From positions 117,256-181,255 of the forward strand of contig SVRK01000002.1 in the NCBI GenBank assembly GCA_015064855.1: a stretch of 64,000 nt of DNA. Reading direction: 5' to 3'. The stretch is from Oscillospiraceae bacterium (GTDB taxonomy: Bacteria > Bacillota > Clostridia > Oscillospirales > CAG-272). The first letter of the stretch is position 1, and every line of letters begins with the position of its first letter. This document shows, piece by piece, positions 30,661 to 35,017 of the stretch. Both the position numbers and the translations under genes were made by a program. Below the pieces are notes generated by a model, which saw only the letters and a program-made list of their open reading frames with translations, ran no database searches and was not told the origin of the DNA.

Positions 30661-30893
30661 ATTCACATAAAAAACCGAGAAGCTAAAAGGGTGATGTTCT
30701 TAGCGGAGAATTTGAAAATACCGCTAAGTGCGAGCATCGCATTTGACTAGTCAAATACTTTATGGGCTAAGCCCAAACCCATTATACGTGAACCCCCAAA
30801 GCTCATACTTCGCTTCGGGGAACCCCTACACAAGCAGAAAGAGATAACAAATCAGCTTATAGCCGAAATGTTATCTCTTTTTCTGTCGGTTTA

Positions 30894-31064
30894 ATGAAAT
30901 CGTTGCACGGCAACGATGAAATCTTCACTTCGTTCAGATGAAATCCAAGGACAAGCCTTGGATGAAATCAAATCCGTCTATAAACAATCCTGCGAAGCAG
31001 GATTTCATCGCGAAAGCGATTTCATCCACCAAAGGTGGATTTCACCCGTCGAAGACGGATTTGA
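30894..31064. repeat. Multi-hairpin REP-like palindromic array (ATGAAAT / ATTTCA units)
   Basis: Four ATGAAAT units separated by short hairpins, then three hairpin+ATTTCA units. tcaaatccgtc pairs with gacggatttga. Confidence 0.7.
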
Positions 31065-31112
31065 CTGCGTGTTCTCCGTTAAGGATAACACGCTAACGCC
31101 TCTCGGTATTTT

Positions 31113-32801
31113 TTATTTCTTTTTGAGCTTATCAATTTCTTGCTGCAGTTGTCCCATTTTTATAAAGAAGAATATTGAAGCCGGCCAGAAAAATAGCAAT
31201 AAAACTATTGCCAATATTAGATTTGTCATCTTTTCCTTTTCAAGCTCCTCTATTTTTGCCTTGTTTCCGAACTTCTTTGATGCAGGGTCAATATTGATTT
31301 CTTCAACACCAACAATAAAGCCGCTACCAGCAAACAAATCCTTCATACGAAGTGCTTCCTTTAAAGAAACGCGGTCAAGTATTGGAGTTTTTCCAAGAAG
31401 TGCACTCCAAGCTTGGTCCCAATTTTTTTCTGTTACATCCATTATAAAATCACGGCATTTATACTTTTGATTGGAGAATGAAACCATATTGAGCTTATAT
31501 TCTCTATACTTCAGTGGTCCCTTAAGATTGTTTTCCACCTCTGCCAAATCCATTTGCAGAACGCATCCAACCTTTTCAAAGGTTTGAACTATATAGTTAG
31601 CTTCACTTCTGTATAAGCCTTTTATAATCAGAGGTTTTTTACCTTCTACAAAAAGGCTTGCCTGATTCCATTCAAATCCAAGCCTCTCCTTTAAGAGATT
31701 GATGGTCTTGTTTTTGTTTGGACCGAACGAGCAAAATCTTACGTCATACAACGTATTATGCTCAAAAAGCGGTTCGGGGTCAGGCATCGGCTCCTTCTCC
31801 TCTACAATAGGGGTAGGGGTCACAATCTCCTCTACTCTTTGTGCTTGAATATATGTATCGGTATTATTCATCTGGCTTTGAAGAGAAGCCCCCGCCTTAA
31901 CCTTTTCATATCCAACTATTTTCTCAATTCCTCTAACGAGGTCAGGCATAAACCCAAGCTTTGACATGTCAAGCGCTTGAAGATGAGAAAACTCCTCCGG
32001 CAAATCATAAGGGTCCATATCCTTGTATGCAGGGATAAGTGTTTTTCTTTCGCCATTTTTCATCATGGTAAGGAATCTTGACCACTCGTTTTTCACCCAA
32101 ACGGCGTTGAAATATTCCGCTCTGGTGCCAAGAACGACCATAACCTTTGAGCTATTTAAAGCCGAAAAGATGTAAGGCTCGTATGCCGTGCCAAGCTTGT
32201 CTTCCAAGGTGATTCTTGCAAAGAAAACCTTGAAGCCCTCACGAGTTAGCTCGTGATAAAGCTCATTTGCATAAACCGAATCGTGCGTTCTTCTGCCATT
32301 TGAATCCGTTTCCTTATAACAAATAAATACGTCGAATGGCTCCTCGCGTCTTGATATATCTAGAATTCTTTTTTGAATATCATTTATTGTTTTTGCTTCA
32401 TCTTGATAGATTACTCTTTGAGAAATATCCGCGTATTTAAGAGCAGACTTATAATTGTCGTCATCAAAAACAGATGTCATTTGAGTACGGTTGATTGTTG
32501 GAACCCTTTTTCTCGTTTTTGGGTCTTCAACATACTCTATTCCATACTTACAAAGGACGATTGACCAATAGCTTTCAGCATCCTCGGGATTTTCGTTGAG
32601 AATTTGCTCATATATCGCCATCGCCTTATCGAACTCGTCATTTCTACGATAGTGGTTTGCTCTCTCGTACAAGCGTTCTATTTTATCATCGCTAATTTTG
32701 GGAAGCGTTTGTGAGCTTCCACAATAATCACAGGTCATAGTTGTAACGCCATCACTCGGCTCAAGTGACGCGCCACACATTTTACATTTAAAAACTGCCA
32801 T
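31113..32801 (-). CDS. Zn-ribbon-TPR-TIR protein with two ribosomal L7/L12-CTD-like domains and a C-terminal TM helix
   Basis: CKMC/CDYC ribbon; TPR-like helices; TIR FDVFICYKE...WVKNEW; YDVRFCSFGPNK..I..L...LG aligns with the L7/L12 CTD. Confidence 0.85.
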   Translation of the reverse strand: MAVFKCKMCGASLEPSDGVTTMTCDYCGSSQTLPKISDDKIERLYERANHYRRNDEFDKAMAIYEQILNENPEDAESYWSIVLCKYGIEYVEDPKTRKRVPTINRTQMTSVFDDDNYKSALKYADISQRVIYQDEAKTINDIQKRILDISRREEPFDVFICYKETDSNGRRTHDSVYANELYHELTREGFKVFFARITLEDKLGTAYEPYIFSALNSSKVMVVLGTRAEYFNAVWVKNEWSRFLTMMKNGERKTLIPAYKDMDPYDLPEEFSHLQALDMSKLGFMPDLVRGIEKIVGYEKVKAGASLQSQMNNTDTYIQAQRVEEIVTPTPIVEEKEPMPDPEPLFEHNTLYDVRFCSFGPNKNKTINLLKERLGFEWNQASLFVEGKKPLIIKGLYRSEANYIVQTFEKVGCVLQMDLAEVENNLKGPLKYREYKLNMVSFSNQKYKCRDFIMDVTEKNWDQAWSALLGKTPILDRVSLKEALRMKDLFAGSGFIVGVEEINIDPASKKFGNKAKIEELEKEKMTNLILAIVLLLFFWPASIFFFIKMGQLQQEIDKLKKK

Positions 32802-32818: not shown

Positions 32819-33538
32819 TCACTTCAAGATTTTACACTTTGTATTTCTTTCGGTAATATAATTAATTACCCCTTTAGCGTTTTCCTCTGCAAGAGCGAAA
32901 TTGCCATCATTAACTGCCGTTGCAAACTCGTTAAATGCAACTGTAATTTTATCTTCAACAACAGAAAGTGCATCATCCGACATAGGGTCACTGTATCTTA
33001 CAGCCTCATATACCTTTTTAGTAAGTGGTGCCATTTCTTCGTTTGATGCAGTATTTTTCATAAGAATTTCAGCATCAGCTGTTAGCATCTTAATGAACAT
33101 CGTTTTTACTTTTACTTTTTTGTCAACTGCCTCGATTGCCTCTATTGCCACCGCCGATTTCAAAACAACAAGTGCATTTACTACTAAAATCACAGCGCAA
33201 ATAATAATGCCGAGCCAATCAGGAATTTGAATAACGGCAAGACAAAGAGTAGCCACTATAAACATCAAAGCTATCGCGCCAATGGTGATTGGAATTAAAG
33301 AAATTCTATAAAACAATCTTCTTGGAGCGTCCGATTTTAAAACATAATATGAGCATGCAAGCTGACCTATAAACATAACTGTAATAAGTGAGTATGCTAC
33401 CCAAAACAATGGATTAAATTTAGTTCCACCATTTATTTCGTTTGGAGTAACGAAGGTGATTAAATTGAACAAGCCTAATACTAAAGCCCAGCCAATTTTA
33501 TAAATAATAAAATTCTTCTTATTCTTCATTATAGTCAC
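32819..33538 (-). CDS. Four-TM membrane protein with soluble C-terminal helical domain
   Basis: Four hydrophobic helices then LTADAE...EAVRYSDPMS; lies between the SPFH and TIR genes with 7-17 nt gaps. Confidence 0.75.
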   Translation of the reverse strand: MTIMKNKKNFIIYKIGWALVLGLFNLITFVTPNEINGGTKFNPLFWVAYSLITVMFIGQLACSYYVLKSDAPRRLFYRISLIPITIGAIALMFIVATLCLAVIQIPDWLGIIICAVILVVNALVVLKSAVAIEAIEAVDKKVKVKTMFIKMLTADAEILMKNTASNEEMAPLTKKVYEAVRYSDPMSDDALSVVEDKITVAFNEFATAVNDGNFALAEENAKGVINYITERNTKCKILK

Positions 33539-33545
33539 CTCTCAA

Positions 33546-34952
33546 TCAAACTCTTTCGCCACATTCAGAACAGAATTTTGCTCCGTTTGGAATCTCCGCA
33601 CTGCATTTTGCACACTTGCGTATCAAGGGTGCGCCGCATTCTTGACAGAATTTACCCTTTGATGTTTTCGCGCCACAGCTTGGACAAATTATTTCATTTT
33701 CACGTAGATTTACTATTTTCTCACCGCATTCAGGGCAGAATTTTGCTGTTGCGGGAACATTTGTTCCGCAACCGGAGCACTGCACTGTATCTAAAGGCTT
33801 ATCAGCGTTAAAGCCCTTAACCATATCTCCCATTTGATTACTGATTTGACCAGCAGCAGCCAATCCAACGCCCAAGCCAACGATGTCGCCTGTAACTCCT
33901 CCGCCACCGTTAGCAACCATAGTTCCAAGTCCCTCGGCATATGCCTTTTGAACGTCCGCTTGTAAAACATCCTTTTGATTGTAGCCTTGCGCTCTCATAA
34001 CCTCAGCTTGAGTTAAGCCCTGTGCTCTTGCTACCTCAACGTTAGCAAAGCCCTCCGCTTTAGCTGCCTCTGCCTTTGCTTGAGCAGCAATAAGCTCTCT
34101 TTCTGCTTGACGTTTTGCAATTTCGGTTTCAGTTGCTTGTTCTTCAAGCGTTATCTTTCTTTGTGCTGCAGTAACAGCTGCCTCGGACTCTGCTTTTGCA
34201 GTTCTAATAAGAGTTTCTGCCTCGACATATTTGGTTTGCAGATTGATTGTATGTAATTCACGTATACGGTCAAAAGCCTTACTGTCGGGTAGGCTAATTG
34301 TTGTAACGTAAAATTGAGGAATTGTAAGACCATATTCCTCAAAGCCGGGAATTAGCTTTTTGCGAAGTCCCTCGGAAAGCTCAGGAAGTCTCTCGTCGAT
34401 TTCAAGCAGGTCAATGCCCTCCGACTTTATAGCACTTGCCAAATGCGCTTTAACCTCGGTAGAAATCAAAGGACGGAACGAGCTTTGAATTGATTGTGTG
34501 AAGCCACTCTTGTCATTCCAAGCGATGCCCTTCATTGTGCCTACCAATTTCACAAGCAGCTTACGTGAGTCGGCTACTGCCAAGTTAAGCTCACCAGATG
34601 CGCCGATTTCAACCGGAACACCATAGGTTGGCTCAATAAAGCGAACGCGTTCAGGAGTTCCCCATTTGAATCCCATTTGAACAGTCTTATTGATAAAATA
34701 AACCTCACAATGGAACGGTGTTTTTCCACCCGTTACAACGTTCAATGCCTTTCCAATCAAAGGAATATTCTGTGTTTCAAGAGTATGTCTTCCTGGGCCA
34801 AAAAGGTCAAGTGCTTGACCATTCAAAAAAAAGATTGCCTCTTGTGATTCATGAACGATAAGCTGTGACATCGTATTGAAATCTTCTTTAGGATGCTTCC
34901 AAATAAACGTGCTATTATCGCCCTCATATTTAATAATATCTGCTATTGCCAA
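33546..34952 (-). CDS. SPFH/Band-7 domain protein with C-terminal double zinc ribbons
   Basis: TTG start; SQLIVHESQEAIF..G...LFGPGRHTL, FHCEVYFIN and KWGT; coiled coil; CSGC/CPEC/CPSC/CQEC/CAKC/CSEC ribbons. Confidence 0.88.
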   Translation of the reverse strand: MAIADIIKYEGDNSTFIWKHPKEDFNTMSQLIVHESQEAIFFLNGQALDLFGPGRHTLETQNIPLIGKALNVVTGGKTPFHCEVYFINKTVQMGFKWGTPERVRFIEPTYGVPVEIGASGELNLAVADSRKLLVKLVGTMKGIAWNDKSGFTQSIQSSFRPLISTEVKAHLASAIKSEGIDLLEIDERLPELSEGLRKKLIPGFEEYGLTIPQFYVTTISLPDSKAFDRIRELHTINLQTKYVEAETLIRTAKAESEAAVTAAQRKITLEEQATETEIAKRQAERELIAAQAKAEAAKAEGFANVEVARAQGLTQAEVMRAQGYNQKDVLQADVQKAYAEGLGTMVANGGGGVTGDIVGLGVGLAAAGQISNQMGDMVKGFNADKPLDTVQCSGCGTNVPATAKFCPECGEKIVNLRENEIICPSCGAKTSKGKFCQECGAPLIRKCAKCSAEIPNGAKFCSECGERV

Positions 34953-34988: not shown

Positions 34989-35017
34989 ATTTTATCATAT
35001 TGTAATGCTTTTGTCAA
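34989..35017 (-). promoter_or_regulatory. Sigma-A promoter of the SPFH-TM-TIR operon
   Basis: Reverse complement TTGACA-17 nt-TAAAAT. Confidence 0.7.

Follow-up and report, generated by a model that had tools for sequence, protein, structure and literature searches.

Diverged tandem copies of the ribosomal L7/L12 C-terminal domain in a membrane-anchored TIR protein of a Clostridia SPFH operon

Why does a bacterial TIR protein carry two domains that resemble the C-terminal domain (CTD) of the ribosomal protein L7/L12 (bL12)? The question is raised by a membrane protein, labeled P0001, that is encoded in a 64,000-nucleotide stretch of DNA from an Oscillospiraceae bacterium (GenBank assembly GCA_015064855.1, contig SVRK01000002.1, positions 117,256 to 181,255). 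This whole stretch is called the window here, and the features under discussion are collected in Table 1. TIR proteins have a central place in bacterial immunity to phages, and to our knowledge the signal sensed by most of them is unknown. An initial annotation, made from the DNA letters and a list of open reading frames (ORFs), proposed that the two domains are bait for invader proteins that target translation or, alternatively, sensors of N-degron-like peptides. We find that the domains are diverged tandem copies of a mobile L7/L12-CTD-type module, which recurs in many non-ribosomal proteins and is unusually frequent beside bacterial TIRs. Neither of the two proposed functions fits the copies in the window well, and we tentatively favor a third one.

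The peptide on which the initial annotation was built comprises residues 352 to 417 of the 562-residue ORF, and the interval that it assigned to the domains, 31260 to 31760, corresponds to residues ~348 to 514. The proposed alignment to the L7/L12 CTD holds. Copy 1 matches the Pfam family Ribosomal_L12 (PF00542) with residues 352 to 416, which cover profile positions 1 to 65 of 67. Within the complete protein the match has 21.1 bits; the segment on its own reaches 25.6 bits (E = 1.5e-5), just short of the gathering score of 25.9. The best PDB match of a copy-1 profile built from four orthologues is Thermotoga L7/L12 (1dd3; E = 1.7e-4), over the full domain, and a pooled profile of 17 TIR-linked L12-like domains, both window copies included, matches exclusively bL12 chains in the PDB, with E values down to 2.2e-18. 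The claim of a second, diverged copy is also borne out. Copy 2 alone has no Pfam match of its own, and its own profile found no L12 in the PDB, only spurious matches (dynein light chain, E = 0.004). Because there is no direct Pfam or PDB match to L12, its homology rests on copy 1 and on the orthologues: hhalign aligns copy 2 to copy 1 over 67 columns (94.8% probability, E = 5e-8), and the second copies of the orthologues P0004 and P0005 match the L12-like hidden Markov model at E values of 8e-10 and 2e-11.

The predicted fold agrees, too, and passes the check for an L12/ClpS-like fold that the initial annotation had suggested. AlphaFold2 (AF2) gives both copies a beta-alpha-alpha-beta-alpha-beta arrangement; a 167-residue fragment with the two domains reaches a predicted local distance difference test score (pLDDT) of 88.8, and the full-length model has a pLDDT of 85 to 90 over both copies. 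When the fragment model is compared with the PDB by Foldseek, bL12 CTDs come first (2zjq_5, template modeling score [TM-score] 0.79; 8yeq, 0.83; 1ctf, 0.85; root mean square deviation, 1.7 to 2.3 Å), followed by ClpS (TM-score 0.53 to 0.68, probability 0.9 to 0.98). The ClpS structures among the fold matches are what speaks for a peptide sensor, in which the fold common to ClpS and L12 would read peptide N termini. However, no match to the ClpS family (PF02617) appears even at E <= 10, the sequence-profile matches in the PDB are all bL12 and never ClpS, and bL12 is the better structural match; we consider such a role hardly credible for this pair.

We regard the identity of the domains as L12-CTD type as settled, with very little residual doubt. 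They share with the bL12 CTD (PF00542; PDB 1ctf, 1dd3, and 8yeq) the fold, a detectable sequence homology, and a length of ~68 residues. Unlike bL12, P0001 lacks the N-terminal dimerization/uL10-binding domain and the flexible hinge, and its domains sit in tandem within a 562-residue membrane TIR protein. The true rplL gene of the genome, a 123-aa ORF, lies on another contig (G000 C9), and the TIR gene is present in a single copy in the genome. The predicted TM-score (pTM) of 0.81 for the two-domain fragment points to a fixed pair rather than to beads on a string, and the model thus suggests that the two domains pack as one compact unit.

How common is such a use of the L7/L12 head domain? A profile was searched exhaustively against 1.84 billion representative proteins and gave 10,249 matches at E <= 0.001. 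The best 150 of these 10,249 are non-ribosomal proteins of 135 to 1333 aa with up to eight tandem L12-like stretches. PF00542 is present in all of the top 105 arrays, and their commonest partner domain is TIR_2 (14 of 105); LRR_4 follows with three cases and LRR_5, LRV, zinc ribbon, and SPOR with two each, and KAP NTPase and EF-Tu domains 2 and 3 are single-case partners. The 14 TIR-array proteins have 306 to 686 aa, apart from one of 1051 aa; in each, a TIR at or near the N terminus, 26 to 32% identical to the window TIR, is followed by two to four L12-like domains. P0168, P0135, and P0214, examples of such short TIR-(L12-CTD)n proteins, share with P0001 the succession of a TIR and tandem L12-CTD-like domains. 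Unlike P0001, they have no zinc ribbon/TPR head, no transmembrane anchor, and no SPFH operon, and they keep the canonical GLGLKEAK motif. A region-restricted homologue search with the domain of a closer relative, P0006, returned 13 proteins, all from the same TIR family as P0001, through a word index that is narrow. Because many arrays start with a signal peptide or lipobox, the L12 fold is probably also used outside the cytoplasm; P0126, for example, is a predicted lipoprotein with six L12-like copies and Ser-rich linkers.

LRV/HEAT repeats are also found among the partners of the non-ribosomal arrays of two to eight copies (P0126 to P0274). On one metagenome contig (L033, 5189 to 7209), a gene for a 264-aa TIR protein lies directly before that of a 402-aa TIR-(L12-like)x3 protein, one of the 14 TIR-array proteins, and the surrounding genes (transglutaminase-kinase, SLFN/AlbA_2-HTH, Bro-N, and DUF3990/DUF3791) have an accessory or defense-type look.

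We found no description of an architecture that combines an L12 domain, a TIR, and SPFH in the searchable full-text literature. The single related remark that we found concerns an L12/ClpS-type domain inserted in the vWA proteins of vWA-MoxR systems, predicted to act in biological conflicts, where it was read as a multimerizing module (Kaur, Burroughs, Iyer, and Aravind, 2020, eLife, PMC7159879). The host protein of these inserts is a vWA and not a TIR protein, they occur in Bacteroidetes and in another system, and a text search of that paper showed no TIR fusion.

From the N to the C terminus, P0001 consists of a zinc ribbon, TPR-like helices, the TIR domain, a disordered linker, copy 1, copy 2, and a C-terminal transmembrane helix. 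The fusion to a TIR, as initially annotated, is evident from the TIR_2 match in the same ORF (E = 2.8e-13). Among 121 aligned homologues, C9, C24, and C27 of the zinc ribbon and W235, V236, N238, E239, and W240 of the TIR are invariant, and C6 is nearly so. AF2 models short beta hairpins at the zinc ribbon, helices at residues 39 to 86 and 115 to 152 of the TPR-like region, and a long helix over residues 506 to 561. The best Foldseek match of the full-length model is AbTir (7uxu, TM-score 0.73), with which it shares the TIR fold and the conserved glutamate. The TIR domain thus has the fold and the conserved catalytic glutamate of enzymatic (NADase) TIRs, and it probably is an NADase. The matches to Thoeris are weak and partial (ThcB4, 28 bits at a cut-off of 220; ThsB1, E = 0.004), and there is no Thoeris-type effector gene. 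Unlike AbTir and ThsB, the window protein is membrane anchored and encoded in an SPFH operon.

A hydropathy scan found a single transmembrane helix, at residues 529 to 547, which is C-terminal to both copies; there is no signal peptide. This topology is compatible with the cytoplasmic ligand that the initial annotation presupposed, and both copies are predicted to be cytoplasmic and to sit on a flexible linker, a segment in which P0001 and its same-genus orthologue are just 36% identical. The transmembrane helix is followed by a basic tail of 15 residues, QLQQEIDKLKKK (window positions 31116 to 31160), which is similar to the ...EINxKI... tails of relatives. A short helix of the form ...L.EIN.KI... 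recurs directly after the last transmembrane helix in P0001 (as QLQQEIDKLKKK), P0006, P0010, P0011, P0017, and P0025, despite differing numbers of transmembrane helices.

Do the two copies retain the surface with which bL12 contacts translation factors? The positions of bL12 reported to contact EF-G are V66 to V68, K70, L80, and E82 (E. coli numbering) on the helix 4/5 surface (PMC5887453). The bL12 of the genome itself reads L N V K L E at these six positions. The corresponding residues are N K T N W Q in copy 1 and Y K C D W Q in copy 2, so that neither copy retains any of the six. K70 is replaced by Asn in copy 1 and by Asp in copy 2, and Trp takes the place of L80 in both copies of all four orthologues (W378 and W461). 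Identity to the CTD of the genome's bL12 is 21% for copy 1 and 15% for copy 2. In contrast, the canonical TIR-linked L12 domains always keep L80 and E82 and usually K70, and the domain of P0006, which reads VRETLGLGLKEAKDLVES, equals E. coli bL12 exactly over 13 residues. Judged by these residues, the factor-binding face of bL12 is lost in both copies.

The most conserved stretch of copy 2, NQKYKCRDFI, consists of ten consecutive invariant residues among sequences that are 49 to 84% identical, and it is located at the loop and helix equivalent to helix 4 of bL12. By the Nei-Gojobori method, the ratio of nonsynonymous to synonymous substitution rates (dN/dS) of the pair is 0.075 between the window and P0003 (0.028 for the first 300 codons) and 0.119 between P0004 and P0005 (0.033 for the first 300 codons), with 0.10 to 0.12 for copy 1 and 0.07 to 0.10 for copy 2, all of which are rough values because dS is near saturation (~1). 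Compared with the TIR head, the pair accumulates changes at three to four times the rate. Since a dN/dS of ~0.08 to 0.12 reflects ordinary purifying selection, the pair is selectively maintained and not decaying, and the two orthologue comparisons gave no sign of domain-wide diversifying selection on it.

These data bear directly on the bait proposed in the initial annotation. As an integrated decoy or stalk mimic, the domains would pass for the bL12 CTD and so bind either phage proteins directed against the stalk or the translational GTPases, or these GTPases themselves, and the capture would cluster and activate the TIR. Several facts make this idea appealing. The relatives P0006, P0009, and P0025 preserve the GLGLKEAKDLVES motif nearly unchanged, K70, L80, and E82 included, as does P0135, an example of the unrelated TIR-(L12)n proteins; tandem arrays on flexible linkers are like the multi-copy stalk; phages encode L12-CTD proteins (a crAss-like phage, and N4-like phages in rIIB-like genes); and a solved structure shows a defense effector, Cami1, on the 70S ribosome alongside bL12 (8phj). 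However, a decoy must resemble the protein that it imitates, and the window copies, with no contact position kept and their low identity to the genome's bL12, do not; the idea is therefore unsupported here. Neither diversifying selection, as the signature of an arms race, nor a match of the window's module in 50,697 phage records (tblastn) was seen. We consider a decoy quite unlikely for P0001, and the idea stays attractive for relatives with canonical motifs. In these proteins, too, conservation of the motif need not mean GTPase binding and may be structural, because a GLGLKEAK-type motif is also found in secreted and lipoprotein arrays (P0126).

The comparison with plant NLR proteins with integrated decoys (NLR-IDs) leads to the same distinction. 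Like NLR-IDs, P0001 is a TIR-bearing protein with a domain borrowed from a host protein, in a family with varying accessory domains. Unlike them, it has no NB-ARC/STAND domain, and its borrowed domain no longer resembles the host bL12. The pair in the window thus lacks the resemblance to a host protein that characterizes integrated decoys, which relatives of the P0006 type would show.

Among viral proteins, the best fold match is a 308-aa bL12-CTD protein of a crAss-like phage (BFVD A0A7M1RYT6). In N4-like Pectobacterium and Kosakonia phages (KY514265.1, KY549659.1/NC_048654.1, MH059638.1/NC_048704.1, and MZ348421.1/NC_070861.1), an L12-CTD-like segment with 36 to 39% identity to a TIR-linked domain lies inside genes annotated as rIIB-like or RIIB lysis inhibitor. 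Several further "phage" matches to L12 are probably contamination with host rplL.

P0001 has at least 8000 homologues, in which the first ~300 residues (zinc ribbon, TPR, and TIR) are ~75% identical and the remainder differs. The relatives exchange their C-terminal half for other modules, a point that the initial annotation had raised for checking. Zero to two L12-like domains, a second TPR region, a charged coiled coil, and one to four transmembrane helices follow the TIR in various combinations, and the single-pass members carry DUF6273, RHS repeats, LRR_5, or RCC1 as outer domains. The L12-like domain is present in 18 of the 121 top matches, always on the cytoplasmic side. In P0014 it stands at the C terminus, after an apparent hairpin of two transmembrane helices, and because this hairpin precedes it, the domain would be back in the cytoplasm. 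The L12-bearing proteins do not form one clade on a quick tree of the TIR heads, and its well-supported branches force at least three gains or losses. A single origin of the L12 module within the family is rejected on this tree.

Of 25 genomes from the genus to which the window belongs, 7 contain the family, one of them by weak matches of ~28% identity alone; none of the 16 genomes sampled from the order's other families does. Among species-representative genomes, the two-copy module occurs at one locus, in a Clostridia metagenome-assembled genome from roe-deer rectum, which indicates that only a very small clade has the diverged pair. A metagenome contig (L027, 2327 to 7647) carries tandem paralogous genes for zinc ribbon/TPR/TIR/DUF6273 proteins of 835 and 798 aa with a 65-aa ORF between them, an arrangement that points to local duplication in this receptor-like family.

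Is the pair then more than filler? The main rival to a binding function is that it serves as a passive spacer or scaffold, a compact substitute for the TPR/coiled-coil stalk that sets the distance between TIR and membrane and has no ligand of its own. Since the usual second TPR and coiled-coil segment is missing in the window's clade, the pair does fill a gap. The module is also optional, with zero, one, or two copies in internal or C-terminal (P0014) position within one family, its canonical binding motif is lost in the window, and the same fold recurs as a repeat unit in widely differing proteins, among them the predicted six-copy lipoprotein mentioned above, which would be out of reach of cytoplasmic factors. 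On the other hand, the purifying selection and the invariant blocks (NQKYKCRDFI and the Trp at the L80 position) go beyond what a mere spacer needs, and a functional link between TIR and L12-like domains can be argued because TIR is the commonest array partner in unrelated proteins. On balance a spacer is a serious, if unlikely, explanation.

The genes around the TIR gene add a further level. It is the third gene of a conserved operon, separated by 17 nucleotides from the gene of a 239-aa multi-pass membrane protein of the four-transmembrane (4-TM) type, which in turn lies 7 nucleotides from an SPFH gene; a terminator-like hairpin (35050 to 35025) precedes the promoter-like site. The 239-aa protein matches no Pfam family, TPM domain included. 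In nine related loci, the gene immediately before the TIR gene encodes a homologue of 232 to 241 aa, and the SPFH gene has the same position in related loci. The three-gene block occurs with L12-bearing members (P0006, P0054, P0014, and P0003 to P0005) and with L12-free ones (P0047 and P0065), in differing chromosomal surroundings.

Table 1. Features of the TIR gene, its protein, and its operon in the window
Feature	Window position	Strand	Residues or size	Basis
TIR gene ORF (P0001)	31113..32801	-	562 aa / 562 codons	ORF
N-terminal zinc ribbon, CxxC-N14-CxxC	32718..32786	-	6-28	Sequence reading
TPR-like helical region	32346..32687	-	~39-152	Pfam TPR_14, residues 44-77, E 5e-5 scanned alone
TIR domain, putative catalytic Glu239 in WVKNEW	31959..32336	-	156-281	Pfam TIR_2, residues 158-281, E 2.8e-13
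Disordered linker	31767..31901	-	301-345	AF2 pLDDT <50 at residues 301-339
L7/L12-CTD-like copy 1	31548..31751	-	351-418	PF00542, PDB profile matches, AF2/Foldseek
L7/L12-CTD-like copy 2, more diverged	31302..31502	-	434-500	hhalign to copy 1, orthologue HMM (hidden Markov model) matches, AF2
C-terminal helix with one transmembrane segment and short tail	31116..31301	-		Transmembrane residues ~525-547, nucleotides 31161-31229
Operon partner, multi-pass membrane protein	32819..33538	-	239 aa	ORF
Operon partner, SPFH (Band_7_1) protein, double zinc ribbons at the C terminus	33546..34952	-	468 aa	Pfam Band_7_1 E 1.8e-37, DZR E 8.6e-16
Promoter-like site, TTGACA-17-TG-TAAAAT	34989..35017	-		11/12 consensus matches, extended -10 TG; consensus match alone

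At the level of the system, the operon could be an envelope-stress signaling module of the type of SamGHI (YdjGHI) of Bacillus subtilis, with the L12-like pair as a lineage-specific adaptor. SamGHI combines a cytosolic SPFH protein of the Band_7_1 type, which has zinc fingers at its C terminus, with membrane proteins that include one with a zinc finger on the cytoplasmic side (PMC8581546 and PMC13713150). The same combination is present here: the Band_7_1 SPFH protein has C-terminal zinc ribbons like SamI/YdjI, and its membrane partner, the TIR protein, has an N-terminal cytoplasmic zinc ribbon and a C-terminal membrane anchor, as in SamG (PMC13713150). In addition, the flanking genes are housekeeping and not defense genes, and PADLOC recognizes no known system. 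Unlike in SamGHI, neither linkage to pspA nor a TPM partner (SamH) was found: no pspA gene is adjacent, a DAPDH-type gene lies upstream in the syntenic locus, and the 239-aa protein has no TPM match. Moreover, the zinc-finger membrane partner bears a TIR and L12-like domains, and the intact TIR glutamate, the patchy distribution within the genus, and the swapped variable modules are more typical of conflict systems. We consider the SamGHI reading improbable, without dismissing it.

In a genome of the same genus (G012 contig C34; L018, 8282 to 10972), the SPFH partner has 896 aa, about twice the usual ~470 aa, and the TIR protein beside it has 713 aa and an L12-like domain at its extreme C terminus, past the transmembrane region. 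Downstream of the stop codon of the window's TIR gene, positions 30997 to 31067 (minus strand) match the Rfam Gut-1 RNA (RF01706; 57.2 bits, cut-off 50, E = 9e-11), and an inverted second copy at 30892 to 30973 (plus strand) scores 36.4 bits, below the cut-off. The whole intergenic region, 30892 to 31067, is an array of short hairpins spaced by GATGAAATC / GATTTCATC words. Gut-1 RNA was rejected as a part of the operon, because none of 10 related TIR-operon loci matches it.

What, then, is the pair likely to do? We tentatively propose, as the likeliest of the roles considered and with somewhat less than even confidence, that it acts in the cytoplasm, next to the membrane, as an interaction module whose binding face has been rebuilt and that helps to set TIR-head assembly and NAD+ cleavage in an SPFH-organized complex. 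The pair lies between the near-invariant zinc-ribbon/TPR/TIR head and the C-terminal membrane anchor, in the slot where relatives carry either a stalk of TPR and coiled coil or, on the far side of the membrane, outer domains that can be exchanged. It would form one compact juxtamembrane unit, in which the former factor-binding face has presumably been rebuilt, with an invariant Trp at the L80 equivalent of both copies. This unit may bind a cytoplasmic partner or a neighboring subunit, and the binding would set whether the TIR heads self-associate and cleave NAD+ within the SPFH-organized membrane complex. Control of TIR oligomerization by the pair is thus a feature of the model, in which the pair would not imitate the ribosomal stalk. 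The operon as a whole may serve in defense or in stress signaling. A more generic sensor or regulatory role for the pair is possible and gains some weight from the recurrent combination of TIR and L12 arrays.

Several points weigh against an interaction module that matters to the TIR switch. The L12 module is dispensable for the core mechanism, because most family operons work without it (P0047 and P0065), and a role in docking to a specific operon partner is unsupported, because the partner proteins look alike whether or not L12-like domains are present. PADLOC and NCBIfam detect no known defense system at the operon, only weak partial TIR matches. The conservation statistics come from just four distinct orthologues of one genus, and the roughness of the dN/dS ratios limits what can be read from them.

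A bolder view takes in the whole set of proteins: the TIR-(L12-CTD)n proteins, among which the L12-bearing members of the Clostridia membrane-TIR family would be counted, may be an undescribed class of translation-linked immune sensors. Their tandem heads on flexible linkers would mimic the multi-copy stalk and trap either translational GTPases whose state is abnormal or stalk-directed phage proteins; such multivalent capture would lead to TIR clustering and NAD+ cleavage, and P0001 would be a descendant with its two heads retuned to a new ligand. We offer this as a long shot.

In summary, the L7/L12 head domain is a mobile module with a second life in thousands of non-ribosomal tandem arrays, and among the best-scoring 105 arrays no other partner comes close to TIR in frequency. 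A very large and apparently unpublished family of Clostridia membrane TIR proteins in SPFH operons has gained the module several times. The copies in the window are the diverged end of this series and are mainly useful as a natural loss-of-motif control. If translation factors or phage proteins are indeed ligands of the canonical versions, TIR immunity would be linked directly to the translation machinery.

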